A stretch of DNA of 64,000 bases from an uncultured candidate division Zixibacteria bacterium (GTDB lineage Bacteria > Zixibacteria > MSB-5A5 > GN15 > FEB-12): positions 352,001 through 416,000 of the forward strand of contig CAVTJJ010000006.1 in the NCBI GenBank assembly GCA_963735035.1, read 5' to 3'. The position numbers were made by a program, and so were the translations under genes. The notes under the pieces were generated by a model. It did not search any database. It had not been told where the DNA came from and saw only the letters and a program-made list of their open reading frames with translations. Position 1 is the stretch's first letter. Each line of letters begins with the position of its first letter. Below are positions 43,945-57,515 of this stretch, piece by piece.

Positions 43945-45334
43945 ATGAAGCGGGTGGCTGTAATTCTGATTCTGACATTGACAATGGTAATGGTGTCCGG
44001 ACTGGTCCAGGCGACCACGATGACACTGGACGATTGTATACAACTGGCGCTAGAAAAGAGGGCTTCGATCATACAGGCGCGCGGCTCCGAAGGATCGGCT
44101 GCGGCCGGCAAAAGGGCCGCTCTTGGAGCGTTTCTGCCCAATATTCGGCGCGTCCTATTCTTACAGCAAAGGCAGGCAGTTCGATATCAATCCGCCTGAT
44201 GTCCAGGTGACACAGTACATGGACGCTTTTGACACTACCGTGATTGCAGGGGATACAGTTCGTAACGCAATCAGAGTTCCTGTCGCGTTTGAGACTATAA
44301 CCTCCCAGGACCAGGGACCGAGCAAGACGTGGGGCGCCACGGCCGACATGGATATATTCAATGCCGCAAGCTGGTTTCAATACGCGGCCGCAAGTGCCGC
44401 AAAAGCAGGAGCACAATTGGATGTGCTCGCGTCCGAACAGGATTTGATAACCTCCGTCAAGGTATCTTATTACGCCCATCTTGCAGCAGTCCAGAACGTG
44501 ACTGTCCAGGAGGATGCGGTTAAACGATCCGCCGAGCAGTTGAAGCTGATTGAGTCGCGGTTTGAGTTGGGGTCCGCCTCCAAATCGGATGTTCTACGCC
44601 AGAAAGTGCAGTCCGGTAACGATCAGCTTGCATTTATTAGTGCGACCAACGCGGTGACGGATACAAAAGCCAATCTTGCTTACACTATTGGAATTGATCC
44701 CAGGGAAGATCTGCAATTTGCGACAGAACCTACCGGTGATCAATACGGGGGAACTCTGGATGAGGCGATTAGCTTCGGTATTGAGCATAATCCTCGCCTT
44801 CTATCGTCACAGAAATCGACCGATCAGGCCAGGCACTCATTGCGCGCCGCTAAGTCAGGGTACCTTCCCACGCTGACGGCATCGGCGGATTATCGCAAGT
44901 TTAACGGCACTCAGTCGTTCACCAATTCCACGCTGAAGTATTCCAATAAGTCGTACAGCTATGGCTTCTCAGTCGGTTATTCGATATTCGATGGCTTCCT
45001 GCGTGAAAAACGGGTAACCGATGCCAAGGTTTATCGTAATAATACCATGGCCGCTCTGGCGGACACGCGCAACTCCGTTATTTCCGGTATCAAGTCATCA
45101 TACTTGAAGATCGAACAGTTGAAGAAGCAGCAGGAAGTCTCGACCGAAAACGTCGCAGCGGCGGAAGAAGATTATCGAATCACGCAGGAAAAATACAACT
45201 TGGGCGCGGCTACGATCCTCGATCTGCTGGACGCCCAGGTGACGTTGAAAGGGGCTCAAGTGGGGCTCATCAACGTACAGTTTGATTTGAATTTGGCGAT
45301 TGCGCAGCTCGAATACGCAATGGGCAAAATGTAA
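43945..45334 (+). CDS. TolC family outer-membrane efflux protein (one apparent frameshift ~44140)
   Basis: Signal peptide, LDDCIQLALE, RFELGSASKSDVL, KYNLGAATILDLLDAQ. Confidence 0.88.
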
Positions 45335-45358
45335 AAGCAAATATAGGGTGCGTCGGGT

Positions 45359-46674
45359 ATGAAGAAGAAGAAAGTCTGGATCATCATCGGCGTGGTTGTG
45401 GTGGCGGGGGCCCTCACATATGTCACGCTGACCTCTAACAAGAAGAAGATGACCGATGTTAATGCGGCCACGGTGGCCAAACAACATCTGGTTGAAAAGG
45501 TGTCCGCCTCCGGGCGTATCCAGCCTCAGACCAAGGTCAATATTACGTCGGAGTTCAGTGGTAAGATCATGTCTCTGCCGGTGGTGGAAGGGCAGCAGGT
45601 CTCTACTGGACAACTCCTGATAGTCATGGACACGGTGCAGATCAAGGCGGATGTTAGTCAGGCCAGGTTCGGTCTGGACGGCTATCGCGCCGCCCTGGAC
45701 GGGGCCAAAGCCAGCGACGACCAGGCCCAGGAAGAATATCAACGGCGCCAGAAGCTGTTCGATCAGAAATTGGGTTCCGAAACGGAGCTCAGCACGGCGC
45801 GATATGCCTATCTCAATGCCAAGGCTAATTACGAGAGCTTGAAGGCGCAGGTCAGCGGGGCAGAGGCCGCTTTCGATAAGCAGCTCGATCGCCTCGCGAA
45901 GGCCAGGATTGCCGCGCCGATGAACGGTGTGGTGACTTCACTGAACGTCGAGGTCGGTGAAATTGCCGCCGGTCAGACCGCGTTCACCCAGGGCCAGACG
46001 CTCATGACCATCTCCGATCTAAGCGTTTTTGAGGTCGAGGTCGAGGTCGATGAGACCGAAGTCAACAAGATCGCGTTGGGGCAGCGCGCTGATATCGAAG
46101 TTGATGCCTTCCCTGATACGACTTTCGCCGGCAGCGTCGTGGAAATCGGCAATACGGCCGTGTTGATCGGTGGCGGAACGCAGGATCAATCCACCAATTT
46201 CAAAGTCAAAGTGACGTTCGCCGAAATCAATCCGAGCCTTCGTCCCGGCATGTCGGCGACGGTTGACATCACGGCCGCCGAGCGCAAGGATGTATTGGCC
46301 GTGCCGTTTGCATCAGTGGTTACGCGCAGCTACAATATGGATTCACTCGCGACGGCCAGAGCGGGCAAGAACGCTAAAGACACCGGTTCGGGCGAAGTTC
46401 TCGCGGCTGAGAACGACAGTCTTAGCGCTCCCAAAGACAGCGCCAAGGCCGGAAAAGATAAGGAGCTCAAGGGCGTGTTTGTGATTCGCGAAGGTATCGC
46501 CCGTTTTGCTCCGATTCAGACCGGTATCGCCGGACAAAAAGACATTGAAGTCACCGAAGGTGTGGCTGAAAAGGACTCGGTAATTTCAGGACCGTACAGT
46601 GTCCTTCGAACGCTCAAAGACGGCGACGCCATTAAGGTCGTCAAAGCCGACAGCACAAAGCAGGAATCGAAATA

Positions 46675-46675
<1 letters not shown>
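45359..46675 (+). CDS. Efflux periplasmic adaptor (MacA/YknX-like membrane fusion protein)
   Basis: [30 protein letters not shown]. Confidence 0.92.
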
Positions 46676-47382
<707 letters not shown>

Positions 47383-47395
47383 AGGTTAAGCGACT

Positions 47396-48621
47396 ATGGT
47401 CCTGGGTTCCCTATTTCGCATCGCGTCCGGCGCTCTCTGGGCCAACAAGCTCCGCTCCGGATTGACTTTCCTGGGTGTCATTCTTGGTGTCACTTCGGTA
47501 ATGACCATAATGTCGTTTCTGCAGGGTGCCGTGGGAGAGATCGAGCGAGCTCTGGATTCGCTTGGCCCGTCGACATTCATGGTGGCCAAGATGATGTCGG
47601 TCTTCTCTGAGGAAGAGTTTTTGGAGAAGATAAAGCGGCGTCCGGTTTCTTTGCATACCGCGGATGTGATCGAGAGAGACTGTCAATTGTGTGAACTGGT
47701 CTCACCGAGACTTTTCGACCAGGCCCGCATAAGCTACGAGAGTCAGAGTCTCAGGCGTATCGACGTCATGGGCGGTACCTCCAATTTTATCGACATCGTT
47801 GATATCGAAGTTGGCCAGGGGCGGTTTCACTCCCACGAAGACGATATTTACAAGCGCAATGTGATTTTCATCGGCGACCTTGTCCGCGAGAATTTCTTCG
47901 AGGGTCGAGACCCGATTGGCAAAGATCGTCAAGCTCGGCGGTCAAAAATACACCGTCATTGGAGTCGCCAAGAAGCGTGGGACTTTGATGGGCGAAAGCC
48001 AGGACGATTTTGTCGTAATCCCGTTGTCCGCCTTCCTCCGCCAGTTCGGCGAGCCGGAGCGCAGGGGTACTTTCCTGACCATCAAAGCTGTTTCGGTCGA
48101 GAAGCTGCCAGAGGCGATGGACGAGGTCCGTCTCATTATGCGCACGTATCGCAAGGTGCCGTACAACGAACCGGATGATTTCGACATGGAGACAGCCGAG
48201 AGCATTTTGGAGCAACTTAACGCTTTCACCTTGATGTTTCGATTAGTCTTCATAGGCATTTCCGGAATCTCGCTGGTAATCGGCGGCATCGTCGTGATGA
48301 ATATCATGATGGTTTCGGTAACCGAACGAACGCGAGAAATAGGCATACGAAAAGTCGATCGGTGCCAAACAACGCCACATTCTCATCCAGTTCCTGTTTG
48401 AATCGGTGATGCTGACGTTTTCCGGAGGCGCCGTCGGTGTGGCTCTGGGGTTCATTATCGCAAAATCAGTCGCGCTCCAGTTCGACCTGAATATAGAACC
48501 GTCCTTGCTGGCCATCTGGTCCGGTCTGGGAGTGTCGACCGGGATCGGTTTGATCTTCGGCATCTACCCGGCCATGAAAGCGGCCCGCCTGGATCCGATA
48601 AAAGCCCTGAGCTACGAGTGA
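47396..48621 (+). CDS. MacB/FtsX-like ABC permease 1 (two apparent frameshifts ~47922, ~48351)
   Basis: NKLRSGLTFLGVILGV...GGIVVMNIMMVSVTERTREIGIRK...YPAMKAARLDPIKALSYE across three ORFs. Confidence 0.88.
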
Positions 48622-48633
48622 GAGGACGACCAC

Positions 48634-49884
48634 GTGTTACTTTCACCCGTTGAAATGCGCGACGCCGTGATTATGGCGATGTCGTCGGTCAGGGGGAACA
48701 AGTTTCGTTCCATCCTGACCATTATGGGCGTTCTGGTCGGGGTGGCGGCGGTGATCTCGATGGCTTCGGTGATCGACGGTCTGAATGGAGCCGCGCAGTC
48801 GGAAATCGACCGCATGGGTTCGAATGTAATCATGGTGAACAAGTTCCCGCAGGGAGTGAACCATGAGGATCTGACCGAAGACGAGCGCAACCGGCCACCT
48901 ATAACGATCGGTGAGGCCCAGACCATACTGGCCAACTGCCCCAGTGTTGATGGTGTGGCGCCGCACAACTACTATTTCAGGCCCGGTGGAAACGAAGCCA
49001 AGTACAATAATCGCAAATTCAACAATCCGAATTTCAACGGCACCTGGCCGGACTATGTGAAGGTGAGGGCCAAAAATGTCTCGTCGGGGCGGTTTCTTGA
49101 TCAGACCGATCTGCAATACCGACGCATGGTCTGTGTGCTGGGATCCGGAGTCGCCGAAGTGCTCTTCCCCGGCGAGGATGCGGTCGGGAAGATGATGCGC
49201 CTAAATGGCGACGAATTCGAAGTGATCGGGATCTTTGAGAAGGTCAAGTCCAATTTCGGGAATGAGTGGGAAAACCGTCTCATCAGTATCCCTATGACAA
49301 CGTTTGCGAAACTGATTCCATGGGAGAAAGAGCTAGCTCTGGATGTGTCAGCTCGATCACGCGAGGTATTAGCGCAAGCCCAGGAGGAGATAATCTCGGC
49401 TCTGCGAATCTATCGCAAAGTGCCATTTGACAAGCCGAACAATTTCGCGCTCTCCACGCAAGACCAGTTCAAGGAACAGGCTGCTCAGATTACCGATGTG
49501 GTTTACATGATCATGATCGTCATTACTTCGGTCGGCCTATTGGTCGGCGGTATCGGCGTGATGAATATCATGCTGGTATCGGTTACAGAGCGCACTCGCG
49601 AGATCGGTGTCCGCAAGGCGATCGGCGCAAAGAAAGCCAATATCGTGCTCCAGTTTCTGACCGAAGCGATGTCCCTGGCCGGTCTTGGCGGTGTTATCGG
49701 AATCTTCGTGGGAGTCATTCTGGGCATGATCCTCAACAAAACCTTCAATTTCCCGGTAACGCTGCCCTTTCTCTGGATATTTATCGGATTCGGAGTATCT
49801 GTCACGGTTGGCCTGGTGTCGGGGGTCTATCCGGCCATTAAGGCGGCCCGGTTGGACCCGATCGAGTCTTTGCGCTATGAATAA
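48634..49884 (+). CDS. MacB/FtsX-like ABC permease 2
   Basis: GGIGVMNIMLVSVTERTREIGVRKAIGA, AARLDPIESLRYE. Confidence 0.94.
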   Translation: MLLSPVEMRDAVIMAMSSVRGNKFRSILTIMGVLVGVAAVISMASVIDGLNGAAQSEIDRMGSNVIMVNKFPQGVNHEDLTEDERNRPPITIGEAQTILANCPSVDGVAPHNYYFRPGGNEAKYNNRKFNNPNFNGTWPDYVKVRAKNVSSGRFLDQTDLQYRRMVCVLGSGVAEVLFPGEDAVGKMMRLNGDEFEVIGIFEKVKSNFGNEWENRLISIPMTTFAKLIPWEKELALDVSARSREVLAQAQEEIISALRIYRKVPFDKPNNFALSTQDQFKEQAAQITDVVYMIMIVITSVGLLVGGIGVMNIMLVSVTERTREIGVRKAIGAKKANIVLQFLTEAMSLAGLGGVIGIFVGVILGMILNKTFNFPVTLPFLWIFIGFGVSVTVGLVSGVYPAIKAARLDPIESLRYE

Positions 49885-49925
49885 CTTCCCCTCTGGCGTT
49901 ATATTGCGCTGTGAGTAATTGAATC

Positions 49926-51176
49926 ATGTTGCTGTCACCTTCTGAAATTCGCGATGCTATCGGCATGGCGCTGACTTCGGTGCGAACCAACAAATTTCGC
50001 TCCTTTCTGACAATTCTGGGAGTAATGGTGGGAGTGGGGGCCGTTATTGCCATGGCCTCGGTGGTAAGCGGACTTAATCTCGCAGCGGAGGCCGAAATCG
50101 ATATGATGGGCTCAAACGTTATCATTGTCGATCGTTTCGGGCCCGGGGTAGATTACGACAATCTGACCGAAGAGGAGCGCAGCAGTCCTTATCCCGACGA
50201 GGAGGACGCTGAAGTCATCATGGCGAATTGCCCGTCGGTTGACGGTGTTGCGCCTCAGAACCACTGGAATTTCGACAGCGGTAACGACCTAAAGTATCGA
50301 AATCACAAGTTCTCCAACGCGACCTTCAATGGCACGTGGCCCGACCTGATCAAAGTGCGTGATATCGACATGAAAGAGGGCCGTTTTATCAGCGAGACTG
50401 ATATCCAATATCGCACCGATGTCTGTGTGATCGGCACGGAAGTCGAGAGGGTGCTTTTCGCTGGTGAGAATCCGCTCGGCAAGATGGTCCGTCTGCAGGA
50501 CCATGAATTCGAGGTCGTCGGCGTGTATGAGGAAGCCAAATCAAGCTTCGGCAACGACTACTGGAACCGGCTTATCAGTATTCCCCTGAGCACTTATTCC
50601 AAGTGGCTGCCGTTTGACAAAGCTCTGACGCTTGAAGTCCGGGCGGCTACGCGGCCCCAGATCAACCAGGCAATAGAAGAAATTATCCAGGCCTTGCGCA
50701 TACATCGTCGCGTCCCTTTTGGCAAACCCAACAATTTCTATCTGTCCACTCAGGAGCAATTCAAAGAACAGGCCCAGAAGATAACCGATGTGATTTACAT
50801 CATTATGATCGTAATCACTTCGGTAGGTCTCTTGGTCGGCGGTATCGGGGTAATGAACATTATGCTGGTCTCGGTGACCGAGCGAACTCGTGAGATCGGG
50901 GTGCGGAAGGCGATCGGGGCCAAACGCTCCAATATTCTGCTTCAGTTTCTGACCGAGGCCATGTCGTTGTCGGGGCTGGGGGGGATAATCGGAGTGGTGG
51001 TGGGGGTGTCACTCGGATTGATCTTGAACAACTCCTTCGGTTTCCCCGTCTCTTTGCCGGTGTTCTGGATTGTAGTCGGTTTTCTGGTTTCGGTATCGGT
51101 TGGCCTGGTTTCGGGTGTGTATCCGGCCTTTAAGGCGGCCCGCCTTGATCCAATCGACGCCCTCCGGTACGAATAA
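49926..51176 (+). CDS. MacB/FtsX-like ABC permease 3 (close paralog of permease 2)
   Basis: Same motifs and same length (416 aa) as permease 2. Confidence 0.94.
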   Translation: MLLSPSEIRDAIGMALTSVRTNKFRSFLTILGVMVGVGAVIAMASVVSGLNLAAEAEIDMMGSNVIIVDRFGPGVDYDNLTEEERSSPYPDEEDAEVIMANCPSVDGVAPQNHWNFDSGNDLKYRNHKFSNATFNGTWPDLIKVRDIDMKEGRFISETDIQYRTDVCVIGTEVERVLFAGENPLGKMVRLQDHEFEVVGVYEEAKSSFGNDYWNRLISIPLSTYSKWLPFDKALTLEVRAATRPQINQAIEEIIQALRIHRRVPFGKPNNFYLSTQEQFKEQAQKITDVIYIIMIVITSVGLLVGGIGVMNIMLVSVTERTREIGVRKAIGAKRSNILLQFLTEAMSLSGLGGIIGVVVGVSLGLILNNSFGFPVSLPVFWIVVGFLVSVSVGLVSGVYPAFKAARLDPIDALRYE

Positions 51177-51274
51177 TCGATCTGGCCAATCTGACGTTTT
51201 GAATCTTGCCCGGCCGGCCGACCACGATTACATTGATCCGGGAACGCCACAAGAGCGTTTTTGTTTTTGAAGGT

Positions 51275-52612
51275 ATGGATAATACGGTCCGCAAATTTCT
51301 CTTTCTTGGTTTGTTGCTTTCGATTGGTCTGCCGATCGTAGCGGTGGCCCAGTTCCTGGCACCCGACGAGCAGGCGGCAACGGTTGCAGAATACCTGCGG
51401 GTCGATTATGCCTATTTTCGAGCGGACACTCCGGATTCGGTTCGTCTGGAGTTGTACTACCAGATTCAGCATCGCGGGCTGGCGTTCAATTTGGCGAACG
51501 GGTCATACTCCGCTGCCTATGAACTGGCGGTTACGGTTATGGATAAGGATGGCCGCGAGCTGCGCTCTTTTACTCGGGATCGTCAGATTGTACTCGGCGC
51601 CGATGAGGAGGTGCGTACCAGGGTCGATTCTCGCACCAGCCAGATAACCCTCAATTTGCCCTCCGGCGATTACCGGGTGCAGTTCAAGCTCAAAGACAAG
51701 AACAGTTCCAAGGTAATGCTTAAGGAACTGAAGGTTGACCTCTGGGACTTGTACGGCAAACTACCCCGACTTTCGGAGATCGAGTTCGCCCAGGCTTTTC
51801 AGAAAGGCTCGGCCGATTCGAGCATCTTTTCCAAGAACGATATCCTGGTGGTGCCGTCAGTGAACCGCGCCTACGGTACGGTGGAAGGCGACCGACTCGC
51901 CTATTATTTCGAAATTTATCCGGGGATCGAAAAATTAGACAAAGCCGTGATCGAGACGAGAATAAGACATTTTCGCCGTGGCTTGGTCTATCGCGACACG
52001 CTGCACATATCCCTTGGAACGGAGCCTGATCGACAATTGCGCGAGATTTCTCTCGATCAGCTTGTTCCCGGAGACTATGAATTGATAGTGAGTCTGCTGG
52101 GGCGTCGTGACAAGAAGCTGGCTGAGCGCACGCAGTTGTTCCAGGTTGCCTGGACCCAGGAAGGCATGATCAAGAACGACTGGGAAACCACGCTCAAGCA
52201 GTTGCAGTTGTTTGCTGACGACGTCGATGTCAGCGACATGAAGAAATTGAAGACTATCGAGGAGCGCGTCAAAGCCTTCGATCAATTCTGGCAGGAGCGT
52301 GATCCCACCGATGGGACCCGTGAAAACGAGGCCAAGGCGGCGTTCTACTATCGCATAAGGATAGCCAACGAGCAGTTCGGGGTCATGCGCACTGAAGGGT
52401 GGCGCACCGACCGTGGGCGGATCTTCGTCCGGTACGGTGAACCCGATTATATGGCCAATGAGCCCTTTTCGCCGGACCGTCATCCCTATCAGATCTGGTA
52501 TTACTCCAGCCTCTCTCCTAACCGACGGTTCATATTTGTAGACGAGAAAGAAGATGGAGATTTCCGCCTCCAGTACCCGTACGACGGGCTTACCACGGCC
52601 GGCGGATTCTAA
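51275..52612 (+). CDS. Secreted GWxTD domain protein
   Basis: FWQERDPT...EGWRTDRGRIFVRYGEPD...YQIWYY. Confidence 0.9.
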   Translation: MDNTVRKFLFLGLLLSIGLPIVAVAQFLAPDEQAATVAEYLRVDYAYFRADTPDSVRLELYYQIQHRGLAFNLANGSYSAAYELAVTVMDKDGRELRSFTRDRQIVLGADEEVRTRVDSRTSQITLNLPSGDYRVQFKLKDKNSSKVMLKELKVDLWDLYGKLPRLSEIEFAQAFQKGSADSSIFSKNDILVVPSVNRAYGTVEGDRLAYYFEIYPGIEKLDKAVIETRIRHFRRGLVYRDTLHISLGTEPDRQLREISLDQLVPGDYELIVSLLGRRDKKLAERTQLFQVAWTQEGMIKNDWETTLKQLQLFADDVDVSDMKKLKTIEERVKAFDQFWQERDPTDGTRENEAKAAFYYRIRIANEQFGVMRTEGWRTDRGRIFVRYGEPDYMANEPFSPDRHPYQIWYYSSLSPNRRFIFVDEKEDGDFRLQYPYDGLTTAGGF

Positions 52613-52617
52613 CTCTT

Positions 52618-54060
52618 ATGAATTCACGAAGTAGTTTCACCTGGGTGGGATTGACAGTGCTATTTGCTCTCATTGTGACCGCCGGTGTGTCTCTGGCGGC
52701 TAACCCGGTCGATCAGGGGCTGACGGTTCGGGCGGGCGTGATTGTTTTCAATCGACCGGTCTTCGATACGGTATCTCTGGTCGAATTTCCCTTTGTCTTG
52801 ACGCGCGATCAGTTCGATTTCTACCGTCCGGACAGTTCTTCCGGGGCTTTGTTCGCGCGGATATTTGCGCAGGTCAATGTATATGGCGCCGACGGACGGC
52901 CGGTCGATTCCGCCAACACTTACTTTTCAGCAGGTGCGGTCGATTCAATCGACGCGCTCAGGCCCGCTTACAGCCTCTTCAATAGCCTTGTTATTGTCGC
53001 CCGACCGGGGATTTACTCGGCCCGCGTGACAGTTGTCGACGTGGTCAGCAAGCGGCAGGGCGAATGCTTTCTCGACCGTATCAATGTCGAAGCGCCGGTC
53101 AAAGATCGACTTTCAATGGGGGGGAAGTGTCTGGCCTTTCGAATCTCCTACGTGGGCGAAACGCCCGGCGTGGGTATCGGAGTACCGAGGAACGGTTACG
53201 AAGTACGGTGCAACCCGACGGGTGCATTCTCAACTCACGATACGACTGCGTCGTACTACGCCGAGGTGTACAACCTGAAATACGATTCGCGAGCGCCGTC
53301 AGATTTTGTGGTCACCAGCCAGATTCTCGACGACTCGAACAAAGTCTTTCGTGAGTTGGGCAGTCGCACCCGAGCGAAAGCGGGGACGTCGGCCGTAATT
53401 GCCGAAACCTTTTCGATCGCCGGATGGCCGGCCGGACGATATGATTTGCAGGTGACGGTTGCTGACCGCGTGTCCGGTGAAGAAGTCAGCTATGACTTTC
53501 CACTCATCATTGTAGCTCCCCAGATGGCAGCCGTAATCGCTCCGTCATCATTGTCCGAAGATGCTGATCCATGTGCGGGCCTCGATCTGGAAACGCAGCG
53601 CCGCCTGGTCTGCTATCTGCTGACGAGCCAGGAAAAGGATATCCTGAAGGGGCTGACTCCGGATGGCCAGCGCCTCTATATAGAGCGGTACTGGCAGGAG
53701 CGGGATCCCGATGTTACCACCAGGGTGCTCGAAAACCGTCAGCAGATGTATGAGCACTACCTTTACGCCAACAACTTCTTTTCGATTAGTGAGGGAAAGA
53801 CCGACGGTTGGTTCACGGATCGCGGTCGCGTCTTCATGGTTTATGGTCAACCGGACAAGCTGGAGGACTTTACCCACCCCTCTAACGAGTACCCTTACCA
53901 GGTCTGGTGGTATTATTCATTGAGGGATGGCAGCGTCTTCGTTTTTCAGGATTCCCGAGGGTTCGGGGACTTCAAGTTGGTGCATTCGAGCTATGCCGGG
54001 GAGTTGTTCAACAAGGTCTGGGATCAGGCCATCAGGGATGGTAGTTACGACGCTGACTAG
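52618..54060 (+). CDS. Secreted GWxTD domain protein (second paralog)
   Basis: YWQERDPD...DGWFTDRGRVFMVYGQPD...YQVWWY. Confidence 0.9.
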   Translation: MNSRSSFTWVGLTVLFALIVTAGVSLAANPVDQGLTVRAGVIVFNRPVFDTVSLVEFPFVLTRDQFDFYRPDSSSGALFARIFAQVNVYGADGRPVDSANTYFSAGAVDSIDALRPAYSLFNSLVIVARPGIYSARVTVVDVVSKRQGECFLDRINVEAPVKDRLSMGGKCLAFRISYVGETPGVGIGVPRNGYEVRCNPTGAFSTHDTTASYYAEVYNLKYDSRAPSDFVVTSQILDDSNKVFRELGSRTRAKAGTSAVIAETFSIAGWPAGRYDLQVTVADRVSGEEVSYDFPLIIVAPQMAAVIAPSSLSEDADPCAGLDLETQRRLVCYLLTSQEKDILKGLTPDGQRLYIERYWQERDPDVTTRVLENRQQMYEHYLYANNFFSISEGKTDGWFTDRGRVFMVYGQPDKLEDFTHPSNEYPYQVWWYYSLRDGSVFVFQDSRGFGDFKLVHSSYAGELFNKVWDQAIRDGSYDAD

Positions 54061-54085
54061 GCAAGTTTGATTATAGTGGAAATAG

Positions 54086-54126
54086 AAAAGCCGCCCGCCT
54101 CGTTGGAGACGGACGGCTTTGCTTTG
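54086..54126. terminator. Bidirectional terminator
   Basis: AAAAGCCG.CCG...CGG.CGGCTTT between convergent genes. Confidence 0.7.
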
Positions 54127-54151
54127 ATTGCAATCAACCGAACTGGGACAG

Positions 54152-54907
54152 CTATTTGCCACCCTCTGCCGGTTTGGCGGCGGTGTCGGTGTTCTGTGGT
54201 ATTGTAGTCGACTTAATAGAACGTTTGACCGGTACCGTGAAGCGGACACCTTTACCCTCGCCAGCCTGGAAAGTGAAGGACTTCTCGAGCTGCTTATCGA
54301 GAGCGGCCGGGAGAAGCTTCACTTCGCCGCTGGCACTCTGGCCGGCGCCGATCTTCTTAGGAAGCGAAATCTCGGCGTATTTGGGGATGTCGGCTATCAT
54401 GGTCAGTTCGATTTCTTTGTCCGAGACGTTCGTGATCGTGAATTTCATCCGATCGCGCACCTTCTCACCGAACTGCGATATGTCCAGCTTGTAGGGCTTG
54501 ACAATGACGGGGTAGGTCGAGTCCGGTCGCTGAATGACTTCGGCGACAATCGATACGTTCTTGTCCGGCTGACCTTCGTTTGTGACGATACGCGGCCGCT
54601 TGGTTACGCGCTGCGTGTACGCCTTGGTGCTGAAAATGATCTCAAGGGCAGTGCTGTCACCGACAGCAAGCTCCGATTTGTCCAACGGAGCTTTGGTGCA
54701 GCCTCACCCAGGCACCACTTTGTCGATCTTCAAGATGTCGTCACCACGGTTGTAGAGCCAGAAGACGTGGGAAATCTCGGAGTTCTGTGGAACGTATCCG
54801 AAATCGAATTCCATTTCGGACATTTCCATGCGCGGGGCCGCGACAACCGAAATAGCCGCCAGCAAGGCCAGCCCCACGGCCAGAACAATTACACTGAAGT
54901 TTCTCAT
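54152..54907 (-). CDS. Exported DUF1573 (Ig-like) protein, probable selenoprotein (in-frame TGA at 54704-54706, motif PG-U-GC)
   Basis: ORFs 54704..54907 and 54152..54685 are in one frame: ...KVVPG-TGA-GCTKAPLDKSEL...; the paralog has VKSGCGCL; hairpin after the TGA. Confidence 0.85.
54668..54693 (-). promoter_or_regulatory. Putative bacterial SECIS element
   Basis: mRNA AAGCUCCG-UUGGACAAAU-CGGAGCUU, a perfect 8-bp stem starting after a 10-nt spacer 3' of the UGA, with G in the apical loop. Confidence 0.7.
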
Positions 54908-54950
54908 TTGTCCTTCCAGTAAGTCCTTAAGGTTTATCTATCGTCTTATA

Positions 54951-55673
54951 TCATTTTTCTTTTGTCGTAAATACAGGGCGGAAACTGAAGTCGCCGAACT
55001 GCATGGGAATTGATACCCTAATGATCTCGCCCTGGTTCCCACTCAAATCGATCGTAACGGAACCTTCGTAGAGAACTGCAGCATTATCCTTTCCTATCGT
55101 TATCCGTCCGACAATCGTCTTGCCCGCTTCAACCGAATCCGGAAGCACTAACACGATTCCGGGACCTGATTCTACCGGGCTTACCGATAGTTTCTCGGCG
55201 GTCCGGTTGGTAAGCTCAAAAGTACCCGACAATTCGACTTCCGGGCTGCCCGACAATTTCACATTTACGGGCGACCAAGAGACAGACGCCTGAAGCTTGT
55301 CCGGGGTTACTACATTTCCTTTGAGGACTATCTCATAAGGGAACGGAATGGAATCAAAATAGAGATAGGCGGACTGGCTCCGAGCGCCAGCAGAACCTCT
55401 TGTCTGCCAGTAAAATACGAGAGGCAGACTATCGCCGGGGGGGATGGTGTCCTGAATTTGGGGAACGACCAGACAACCGCATCCGGACTTTACGGAATTA
55501 ATTCTGAGCGTGTCGGTACCCACGGCATGAACCCAGATCTGATGCGTAACGGTCACGTTGGTCGTTACCTGACCGAAATCGAATTCGCCGCCATTGATTC
55601 TGAACTTGTCCTCAGCCCACGAAGACGTGGCAAGTAGAAGGCTAAGAGCGAATATGCGAACAGTAATAATCAT
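54951..55673 (-). CDS. Exported DUF1573 domain protein (Cys form)
   Basis: Signal peptide, FDFGQV...LRINSVKSGCGCL...IPPGDS. Confidence 0.85.
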   Translation of the reverse strand: MIITVRIFALSLLLATSSWAEDKFRINGGEFDFGQVTTNVTVTHQIWVHAVGTDTLRINSVKSGCGCLVVPQIQDTIPPGDSLPLVFYWQTRGSAGARSQSAYLYFDSIPFPYEIVLKGNVVTPDKLQASVSWSPVNVKLSGSPEVELSGTFELTNRTAEKLSVSPVESGPGIVLVLPDSVEAGKTIVGRITIGKDNAAVLYEGSVTIDLSGNQGEIIRVSIPMQFGDFSFRPVFTTKEK

Positions 55674-55797
55674 AATGTTGACTCGGTCGTATAACTTATT
55701 GCATCGAAGCGGGTTGGTCAAGGTCTTTCAACTGTTTTAGCTTGTTCTTAAACACCTGGCGTTCTAAGATTGATCGATTTAATCGAGTTGTAGATTT

Positions 55798-56730
55798 ATG
55801 CGTGTAATTGAAATACAGGACCTCACCAAGATCTATGCTACCCGACTGAAGAAGGGCAACGTAGTCGCGCTGGATACGGTGTCATTTGGGGTTGATCAAG
55901 GTGAAATCTTTGGCTTGCTTGGCCCGAACGGGGCCGGCAAGACCACCCTTATCAAAGTGCTGTTGGGCATCACTGAAGCGACTTCGGGCGATGTTCTTAT
56001 CAACGGCCTTCGTCCGACCGATCCAACCTCCCGTGAGAAACTGGGGTTTCTTCAAGAGAATCCCCGGTTCCCGGAACACCTGACTGGCAACGGTCTTTTG
56101 TGGTTGGCCGGTCGACTATGCGGAGTCAGTGATGCGGACCTGGACAAGCGGACCCCGGTGCTGATGGAAACGGTCGGGATGGGGAAATGGGCCGATGTCA
56201 AGATAAGCAAGTACTCCAAGGGGATGATTCAGAGAATCGGTCTGGCTCAGGCGCTTGTCTCGGAGCCGGATATAGTGTTTCTTGACGAACCGACCGAAGG
56301 GATTGATCCGATCGGCAAAGTCGAATTTAGAGACGTCCTCAAGCGTCTGCGCGATCAAGGCAAGACGGTGCTTCTCAATTCCCACCTGCTGGGCGAAGTC
56401 GAGATGATTGCCGACCGGGTAGCAATCTTGTCTCGTGGAAAACTGGCGCGGGTGGGGACGGTCGATGAACTGACGGTAAGTGGGAATCAATACGAAATCG
56501 AGGCGGATATCGGTGACGACCGGTTTGAGATGCCCCCTGAGGTTGGTCGCATCGTAATTATCAAGACTGATGGAATGACGGTCGAACTCGAAAAGCTGGA
56601 GAACATCAATCTGGTCATCGATCAGTTGCGCCTGCGGCATATAAACATTCGGTCAGTGCAGCCGGTCAGACAGTCGCTGGAGCGGTCGTTCGTTGACGCC
56701 GTCACGGAGCCTGCGGGGGGGACGGAATGA
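55798..56730 (+). CDS. ABC-2 type transporter ATP-binding protein
   Basis: GPNGAGKTT, YSKGMIQR, LDEPTEG, NSH. Confidence 0.93.
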   Translation: MRVIEIQDLTKIYATRLKKGNVVALDTVSFGVDQGEIFGLLGPNGAGKTTLIKVLLGITEATSGDVLINGLRPTDPTSREKLGFLQENPRFPEHLTGNGLLWLAGRLCGVSDADLDKRTPVLMETVGMGKWADVKISKYSKGMIQRIGLAQALVSEPDIVFLDEPTEGIDPIGKVEFRDVLKRLRDQGKTVLLNSHLLGEVEMIADRVAILSRGKLARVGTVDELTVSGNQYEIEADIGDDRFEMPPEVGRIVIIKTDGMTVELEKLENINLVIDQLRLRHINIRSVQPVRQSLERSFVDAVTEPAGGTE

Positions 56731-57515
56731 ACGGTCTGTTTCGCGACACCCTTGCAGAGATGATCAGCCGGAAGATATTCGTCCTCTTTGTCATCGTGAC
56801 CCTGATCCTCTTGTTGGCCGTCTGGGGCACCTGGGAGGTCAGACTGAACATATCGGGTGACCAGGAGTTCAACGAGTCAGCCTCGGGTGCTGCGGCGTCG
56901 CTCGTGGCTGAGGCTTTTTCGAAAGTCATGTCGGTCTTTGTATTCTTTGCCGTATTCGCCACCGCCGGCTTGATACCCCGATCACTCGAACGGGGCAGGG
57001 CTGAATTCTTTCTGTCCAAGCCTCTCTCGCGGGCGCGGCTTCTGACGGCCAGGCTCGTGTCCATATGGCTGGTCTATGGCCTGATGGTCGTCGCCTGCGG
57101 CTTGATCGTCTACCTCGTGATGGTTCTCGTGCATGGTGGCTTTGACCCGGCTATGTTAGTTCTCTTCGTTATGACGTTCGTAGAATTCGGCATCTGGGTC
57201 AGCATCATTGGTATGGCCGGGATACTGTTCGGTTCGGCGTCGTGGACGATGATTATCGCGTTCAGTATCTGGGTTGCGCAATTGCTGTTGGCCTCCCACG
57301 ACAGTCTCCGGAATTTCCTGACCAATCAGGTTGTTATATACACGATAGATACGTTGTACTACATAGTTCCCAAGACTGGTCAGATGCGTGACCTGGCGGT
57401 CAGTGTTGCGATCGGACGACCCGTGGAAAGCTGGCTGCCCCTCTGGAGCTCGGCGGTCGTCGCAGCTATCTTGTACTACTGTACCGTTTCGGTTTTTTCG
57501 CGCCGGGATTACTAG
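56727..57515 (+). CDS. ABC-2 type transporter permease
   Basis: About 6 TMs, LERGRAEFFLSKPLSR, C-terminal FSRRDY; overlaps the ATPase stop. Confidence 0.85.
   Translation: MNGLFRDTLAEMISRKIFVLFVIVTLILLLAVWGTWEVRLNISGDQEFNESASGAAASLVAEAFSKVMSVFVFFAVFATAGLIPRSLERGRAEFFLSKPLSRARLLTARLVSIWLVYGLMVVACGLIVYLVMVLVHGGFDPAMLVLFVMTFVEFGIWVSIIGMAGILFGSASWTMIIAFSIWVAQLLLASHDSLRNFLTNQVVIYTIDTLYYIVPKTGQMRDLAVSVAIGRPVESWLPLWSSAVVAAILYYCTVSVFSRRDY

Follow-up and report, generated by a model that had tools for sequence, protein, structure and literature searches.

In the classical bacterial arrangement, that of Escherichia coli fdhF, a UGA codon is read as selenocysteine (Sec, U in the one-letter code) at the direction of a selenocysteine insertion sequence (SECIS), a stable hairpin that lies within the gene past the UGA and has an apical G (and U), and selA, selB, selC and selD are needed. 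The E. coli spacing rule is 11 nucleotides (nt) to the minimal hairpin, the bSECISearch model expects the apical loop G (G-U) some 16-37 nt past the UGA, and from work on E. coli and Moorella the loop G-U is said to be what SelB reads. A catalogued family that is pertinent here appears as 'DUF1573 domain-containing protein, PF07610, motif UGC' in two review tables, which credit it to Zhang and Gladyshev (2007); Table 2 of that paper has OS_HP2, two sequences from Olavius algarvensis delta-symbionts, and gives it no cysteine (Cys) homologue in that metagenome. The subject of the present analysis is a gene on the minus strand of a 64,000-nt stretch of DNA (the window) from an uncultured Zixibacteria bacterium. 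This gene, P0001, is in our estimation, at a probability of about 0.9, a genuine selenoprotein gene, its product being an exported protein of 251 amino acids (aa) with a signal peptide, two immunoglobulin (Ig)-like beta-sandwich domains and Sec in place of the first Cys of a C-G-C motif, to give U-G-C.

The minus strand from 54907 to 54152 is a single frame of 251 codons whose sole interruption is TGA 54704-54706. An open reading frame (ORF) of 67 aa (54704..54907) and another of 177 aa (listed from TTG 54685) are both in this frame, and translation confirms what an earlier note on the window had read there, two ORFs split by that TGA only and yielding 251 aa on read-through. Around the TGA the read-through product is ...IDKVVPG-U-GCTKAPLDKSEL..., or in longer context ...KIDKVVPG-U-GCTKAPLDKSELAVGDS..., and the adjacent paralogue, again just as the earlier note had it, reads INSVKSG-C-GCL, with Cys where the Sec gene has its TGA codon. 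Over residues 28-124 the protein matches positions 2-98 of the 98 in the DUF1573 profile (PF07610) at 71.3 bits, against a cut-off of 26.1, so that the TGA, at residue 68, falls inside the match; there is a match, too, to the related HYDIN/VesB-like Ig model. An AlphaFold2 model built with 50 sequences (mean predicted local distance difference test score, pLDDT, 93.5; predicted template modelling score 0.83) has an N-terminal helix at residues 2-20 and beta-sandwiches at 27-125 and 134-229, the first of them continuous across residue 68, with a tail beyond residue 230 at pLDDT 48-67.

The strongest argument comes from relatives. With the read-through protein as query, 61 genomes were searched, the source and the 60 nearest to it, from four families of one order; their names in another collection are Candidatus Zixiibacteriota, apart from two labelled Ignavibacteriales and one unclassified 'bacterium' metagenome-assembled genome (MAG). 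All gave matches. When the 30 best matches are taken, one per genome, 29 have exactly one TGA and at the 30th locus a Sec copy stands beside a Cys copy, and the TGA is at aligned codon 68 in 30 of 30 loci, in the context PG-U-GCT[K/Q]APL. A further 34 loci were chosen because the search had flagged a TGA there and are thus a selected set; codon 68 is U in 33 of these and C in one. This brings the Sec genes to 63, spread over 56 of the 61 genomes, at 35-69% protein identity, the other five (G003, G008, G027, G030 and G046) having no Sec gene among the matches listed, outside which there were 120 weaker ones. Also in these loci are 35 paralogues of Cys form, all with C at codon 68 and of two types, PGCGCT... 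and T/SGC-x-C, and the positions invariant in an alignment of 50 Sec and Cys sequences include G67, C/U68, C70 and G83-D84-S85. Contigs from four public runs over 54100-55000 show, among the matches listed, no alternative letter at 54704-54706 or at 54653-54667, and these same contigs do differ from the P0001 locus at neighbouring sites. For the public sequencing runs holding this genome, no RNA run was listed and the shares in the DNA runs were at most 0.10.

Could the TGA nevertheless be a true stop, with P0001 a pseudogene, an assembly error, or a 67-aa peptide followed by a separate 177-aa protein? Gene callers treat it that way, and the catalogues hold fragments of P0001 and of five relatives that are 175-177 aa long. 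The proposal is barely credible in the face of a TGA that keeps to one codon throughout so diverged a set of genes and genomes, a DUF1573 domain and a confidently modelled fold that run straight across it (each piece alone would be half a beta-sandwich), coding-potential scores that are positive on either side (0.22 and 0.15) and independent public-run contigs that agree on the codon.

The assembly searched (3.6 Mb in 6 contigs, 97% complete) has the genes that the classical SECIS depends on. Its tRNA-Sec scores 67.6 bits with Rfam (cut-off 47) and is called tRNA-SeC(tca) by ARAGORN, selA is found at 511.5 bits (cut-off 267.9), selB, which lies at G000:C6:291684-293537 and adjoins selA, at 327.8 (cut-off 242.25), and selD, with one in-frame TGA of its own, at 394.1 (cut-off 125). 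Since TGA closes 779 of the 1806 open frames that are 300 codons or longer, being the commonest stop codon in the genome, the code is the standard one and TGA 54704-54706 is an exception to it. Among the related genomes selD was found in 59 of 61, in 58 of these 59 with one TGA. Decoding of the P0001 UGA otherwise than as Sec, or not only as Sec, whether by near-cognate read-through or by a Cys-tRNA, so that a Cys or Trp protein resulted, is very improbable: while Cys does work at codon 68 in many paralogues, the Sec pathway is there in full and is conserved across the order, the Sec form has RNA elements of its own that are under strong selection, and TGC or TGT would be the simpler means were Cys wanted, as the tandem duplicates that have one illustrate. 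Two minor features of selD itself may be recorded here. Six relatives (loci L093-L098) have, besides or instead of a Sec-type selD, a selD match of about 550-750 aa without TGA, which may be a fused Cys-type SelD, and in G022 the selD is of normal length and lacks a TGA.

The RNA elements just alluded to are two adjoining hairpins, both of them where the earlier note had placed them (Table 1): hairpin 1, with its loop 18-21 nt past the UGA, and, directly after it, hairpin 2. Folded as a single sequence, the 73 nt concerned reach -30.0 kcal/mol, with shuffles at -22.9 +/- 3.3 (z = -2.18; 6 of 200 shuffles as good), a fold that is no more than moderately unusual; it is the relatives, when compared, and not the fold energy that carry the evidential weight. 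For that comparison the 63 Sec genes were aligned over 72 nt that surround the TGA, which took no gaps. Hairpin 2 (columns 46-60) is GCUGUC-GG[U/C/G]-GACAG[C/U], with six of six pairs, in 61 of the 63, and 98.4% of its cells are paired. The codons that spell it are all but fixed, GCT in 61 genes, GTC in 61, GGT in 51 with GGC in 11 and GGG in one, GAC in 62, and AGC in 60 with AGT in two. At the same site the 35 Cys forms employ four Ala codons, both GAC and GAT, and six Ser codons, and 28 of them have Pro for the Val; GUC, for Val, can pair with GAC, which CCN, for Pro, is unable to do, and it would seem from this that the RNA has moulded the amino acid sequence. Where one and the same genome has Sec and Cys duplicates in tandem, their local peptides are near-identical, with the hairpins kept in the Sec copy only.

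Hairpin 1 (columns 20-45) is variable in sequence and covaries, 75.8% of its cells being paired over the 63 genes and 5 of its 11 pairs changing on both sides; in some sequences its register is shifted by one codon, which lowers these pairing and covariation figures. The covariation score of the two-hairpin structure as a whole is 0.169; shuffles give 0.107 +/- 0.006, with 0 of 500 reaching that score, and sliding the partners gives 0.058-0.086. Cys forms pair at 1-7 of the 11 positions of hairpin 1 and at 0-4 of the 6 of hairpin 2. When given a 30-sequence alignment RNAalifold returned hairpin 2, an extra small stem of invariant columns (10-26) and not hairpin 1, which is defined here by explicit pair counts and not by RNAalifold. 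The reading of the locus as a selenoprotein gene had come with its own list of ways to refute it, and of the tests on that list, all of which were run, none went against it: tRNA-Sec, selA, selB and selD are all above their cut-offs, the orthologues have their TGA at the same codon and the paralogues Cys, both hairpins are kept in Sec forms and absent from Cys forms, and, among the matches listed, no other letter replaces any of the three at 54704-54706.

Which of the hairpins would serve as the SECIS? The other Sec genes of these genomes offer guidance. A set of 23 selD genes has, 13 nt past the UGA, a 7-bp stem, 94.8% paired and with 4 of 7 pairs covarying, whose cap is GUU, GGU or GGC and whose loop is about 20 nt past the UGA. 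A thioredoxin (Trx)-like gene with the motif W-U-T-W-C (G000:C3, TGA at about 302016 on the minus strand; locus L058), recognised from a TGA scan alone and not from a family library, has a textbook SECIS, UGGACAC-GGUC-GUGUUCA, from 16 nt past its UGA. The SECIS elements of selD and the Trx-like gene are 6-7 bp stems capped by GGU, GUU or GGUC, and hairpin 2, with its loop of GGU, GGC or GGG (in the 51, 11 and one of the 63 genes counted above), has the same shape and loop. The apices of hairpin 1 are mostly of GAAA or GGAA type, and the dinucleotide GU is found there in 3 of 63 genes. There are also differences. The selD and Trx-like genes have one hairpin, not two, the sequences of their stems are not that of hairpin 2, and their single-stranded spacer is 13-16 nt, in comparison with 10 nt for P0001 if hairpin 1 is folded. 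From the fdhF type, with which it has in common the UGA, the in-gene hairpin and the sel genes, P0001 differs in its two adjoining hairpins and in a G-G-U loop that is 42 nt from the UGA.

A parallel is to be found in a second DUF1573 selenoprotein gene of the same genome, P0002 (G000:C3:489126-490352, minus strand; locus L057:1127-2353), whose 408-aa product is anchored in the membrane at its N terminus and contains the motif GT-U-GCTAAVL. Its 15 matches, from 13 of the 61 genomes, each have U at the aligned codon. In this subfamily a variable hairpin of CCGU...ACGG type is followed by 3 nt and then by an invariant UUCCCC-CGGG[U/C]-GGGGAA that starts 35 nt past the UGA, a plan repeated in all but one of the 15 matches, L123 having U for C in the 5' arm.

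The earlier note had taken hairpin 1 for the SECIS, and its position and covariation are in keeping with that; it is hairpin 2, though, that resembles the other SECIS elements of these genomes, and on this ground we favour hairpin 2 as the SelB-binding element, without regarding the matter as settled. One may then picture the ribosome at UGA 54704-54706 with SelB, bearing Sec-tRNA(Sec), recruited by the RNA just downstream. Hairpin 2 would be what SelB binds, its 6-7 bp stem and G-G/U-U triloop being of the selD-SECIS shape, and hairpin 1 would be a folded spacer that brings it to the usual effective distance of 10-16 nt from the UGA. What is tentatively proposed, at somewhat short of even chances, is a two-part SECIS in the DUF1573 Sec genes of this order, in which a fixed GGU-loop hairpin set on the G-D-S codons about 40 nt from the UGA is accompanied by a hairpin that matters for its pairing only and folds 26 nt away to leave an effective spacer of 10-16 nt, with the RNA having driven the substitution of Val for Pro. 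The two-hairpin layout may be the part of this that is new. If the proposal is true, the presence of the layout in two DUF1573 subfamilies has implications for the gauging of distance by SelB and the ribosome and for the rules built into selenoprotein finders, as the spacing rule would be one of three-dimensional distance and not of nucleotide count, and SECIS searches with a fixed window from UGA to loop would miss such genes.

Several considerations weigh against this picture, some against the SECIS assignment and some more generally. The organism is known from assemblies alone, and it is on sequence that the selenoprotein call rests. Rfam gave zero matches at E<=10 over 54500-54800. Hairpin 2 is without any compensatory change, its pairing being backed by invariance and not by covariation, and its loop, at 42 nt, is beyond the range of the bSECISearch model, hairpin 1 being the one at the classical position. 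A covariance model (R1) made from the 23 selD SECIS hairpins and run over 64 DUF1573 loci (137,898 bases) gave 3 weak matches at E<=10, none of them at the 63 hairpin-2 sites, and for that reason the likeness of hairpin 2 to the selD SECIS is one of shape and loop and not a scored one. There is a second possible partner for the 3' half of hairpin 2 (GGUGACAGC), namely GCUGCACC, the G-C-T codons directly past the UGA. The long stem that this makes (columns 11-18 with 52-60) has 88.5% of its cells paired and is the minimum free energy choice in 18 of 63 sequences, compared with 29 of 63 for hairpin 2. In two Sec genes (L083 and L087) hairpin 2 is missing and the first position still has a hairpin, whose loop is GGAA or GGUA. 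The redox function considered further on is proposed by analogy only.

Some of these same points favour a different division of labour in what would still be a genuine selenoprotein gene. Hairpin 1 alone, which starts 10 nt past the UGA with its loop at an fdhF-like position and covaries, would be the SECIS, and hairpin 2 might act as a brake on the ribosome, make the mRNA more stable, or pair with GCUGCACC as the lower part of a long stem that would melt when the ribosome arrives. The two genes without hairpin 2 and the high pairing of the long stem suit this alternative. It seems unlikely to us since only 3 of 63 hairpin 1 apices have the GU that SelB reportedly reads, the selD and Trx-like SECIS loops are all G[G/U]U or GGC, and the invariant 5' arm of hairpin 2, GCUGUC, which forces Val over Pro, would go unexplained. 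As for the long stem, 25 of 63 cells are unpaired at column 12 and there is no compensatory change. It was dropped as the main structure, though it may be an alternate conformer: over 54653-54703 on the minus strand such a stem, tipped by hairpin 1, could alternate with the two-hairpin form, as a possible switch on arrival of the ribosome.

To return to hairpin 2 as the favoured SelB-binding element and to the protein whose synthesis it would permit, the mature form would be periplasmic or located at the surface of the cell, and its U-G-C would be a redox-active selenenylsulfide centre or, less likely, a site for a soft metal. A redox or metal role is suggested by the exchange of Sec and Cys together with the invariance of the motif. 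Known C-x-C motifs of redox or metal function include the C-G-C shuttle disulfide of Erv2, the C-x-C of CCS and that of metallothionein. These resemble U-G-C in having two thiol(ate) positions one residue apart, with Gly in the middle as in Erv2, and they differ from P0001 in fold, its own being an unrelated Ig-like beta-sandwich of the HYDIN/ASH/PapD kind with no cofactor domain. By analogy a periplasmic U-G-C redox centre is the best guess, with chances that are about even; binding of a soft metal, likewise argued from analogy, is possible and a good deal less probable, and what share remains goes to a structural role. Structural matches were of little assistance in this. Those returned by Foldseek are tandem Ig/ASH/PapD-like proteins, namely HYDIN and other ciliary central-apparatus proteins, CEP192 and the Porphyromonas gingivalis protein 2qsv, and as generic tandem Ig/ASH folds they were rejected as a lead to function. 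The best bacterial match, Protein Data Bank (PDB) entry 2qsv (strain W83, uncharacterised; E 1.7e-9), has two tandem beta-sandwich domains like P0001, at 12% identity, a template modelling score of 0.35-0.39 and a root-mean-square deviation of 12.8 A across both domains, and no match at the level of sequence. Searched by sequence at E<=1, the PDB gave zero matches to the protein on its own and zero to a profile of 50 sequences.

The earlier note had asked whether the family was already catalogued. It is, given the entry in the review tables with its credit to the 2007 paper and the NCBIfam model NF041425: the DUF1573 'UGC' selenoprotein family has been catalogued since 2007, and P0001 is a new, widespread and unannotated branch of it. 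With OS_HP2, so far as the table entries describe that family, it shares the Pfam domain PF07610 and the U-G-C motif (PG-U-GC). The differences are that P0001 is a short, exported, two-domain form, that it is from another phylum (its relatives being named Zixibacteria) and that it scores below the family cut-off. NF041425, the 'OS_HP2 family (seleno)protein', is its best NCBIfam match at 63.3 bits with C scored for U, the cut-off being 100, so that annotation by this model would not rescue it, and P0002, at 94.4 bits, is below the cut-off too. The DUF1573 Sec genes compared here are all from one order, members of OS_HP2 from other phyla being represented by the accessions in the review tables. 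A literature search brought up no paper on this protein in Zixibacteria, including when Zixibacteria was combined with selenocysteine, a result that does not extend to supplementary material of the 2007 paper or of reviews from 2022 and 2026, which may list such members; OS_HP2 by name gave unrelated matches only, and in the passages that the search returned, including those outside selenoprotein reviews, no published function was found for DUF1573.

How such a protein has been stored is instructive. Among the best 120 matches listed from a large protein catalogue, six are fragments of 175-177 aa that begin [M/L][D/E]K[S/T][E/D]LAVGDS; they are P0001's own and those of five Sec-form relatives, cut at the TGA, and one of them goes by the name 'hypothetical protein' of a Zixibacteria MAG. 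Most of the other matches listed are full-length PGCGCT Cys forms. An exported selenoprotein that is order-wide and near-universal is present in public catalogues only as 'hypothetical' fragments. Exported bacterial selenoproteins without an assigned function are few, and the tandem Sec and Cys duplicates are a natural pair for learning what it is that Sec adds.

Table 1. Features of the P0001 locus, in positions of the window
Feature	Positions	Strand	Particulars
Whole selenoprotein gene (P0001)	54152..54907	-	ATG 54905-54907; Sec codon TGA 54704-54706; stop TAG 54152-54154; 251 aa on read-through
Sec codon TGA	54704..54706	-	Residue 68, opposite the first Cys in CGC; translation and homologue alignment
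Hairpin 1, AAGCUCCG-UUGGACAAAU-CGGAGCUU	54668..54693	-	Starts 10 nt past the TGA; sequence variable, stem covaries among Sec genes
Hairpin 2, GCUGUC-GGU-GACAGC	54653..54667	-	Encodes A-V-G-D-S; GGU loop starts 42 nt past the TGA; near-invariant in Sec genes, synonymous sites included; absent from Cys paralogues
Probable signal peptide of the Sec (secretory) type, residues 1-24 (MRNFSVIVLAVGLALLAAISVVAA)	54836..54907	-	Without lipobox Cys; suggested by the sequence; model helix 2-20
DUF1573 / HYDIN-VesB-like Ig domain, residues 28-124	54536..54826	-	Contains invariant G-[U/C]-x-C and G-D-S; Pfam, alignment, model, Foldseek
Second beta-sandwich domain, residues 134-229	54221..54508	-	Followed by a low-confidence Thr/Pro/Ala/Lys-rich tail; AlphaFold2 model
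Terminator-like hairpin and T run, 3' of the stop codon	54087..54120	-	15 pairs, 9 of them G-C; consensus match only
Upstream tandem Cys paralogue (DUF1573, ...SG-C-GCL...)	54951..55673	-	Own stop TGA 54951-54953; ORF, Pfam, alignment

Elsewhere in the genome, a scan for frames interrupted by TGA gave 230 candidates, most of them noise, which a filter for GGU loops reduced to nine, and of these selD, the Trx-like gene and P0001 were the only convincing ones. Two other interrupted frames from the scan may be put on record, one at G000:C4:1033286 (plus strand), ...LL-U-GCGEFF..., which is another U-G-C, and one at G000:C6:687075 (minus strand), ...GVLG-U-TIPR..., with ACCGGC-GGU-GUUGGU 12 nt past the TGA.

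As to the surroundings of P0001 in the window, most of the loci L020-L049, 30 in number, have a tandem Cys paralogue of T/SGCxC type next to the Sec gene. The pair of Cys and Sec genes is flanked on one side by a convergent cluster that has OEP, HlyD, a MacB-type ATP-binding cassette (ABC) protein, FtsX permeases and two GWxTD proteins, and on the other by a divergent ABC/ABC-2 transporter, after which come a rubrerythrin-like gene, an M20 peptidase and a short-chain dehydrogenase/reductase. The order over 44123-57515 (MacB/FtsX, two GWxTD, the DUF1573 Cys and Sec genes on the opposite strand, ABC and ABC-2) is kept in three annotated relatives (L050, L052 and L054) at 57-65% identity, and, because all three are close kin, this synteny says little on function. 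At 47396-48401 on the plus strand, an ORF of 260 aa matches the MacB periplasmic core domain only, with an ORF of 173 aa in another frame overlapping its end, and is followed by two full-length MacB_PCD+FtsX genes of 416 aa each; the stretch is possibly a third permease gene that has been split or has undergone a frameshift.

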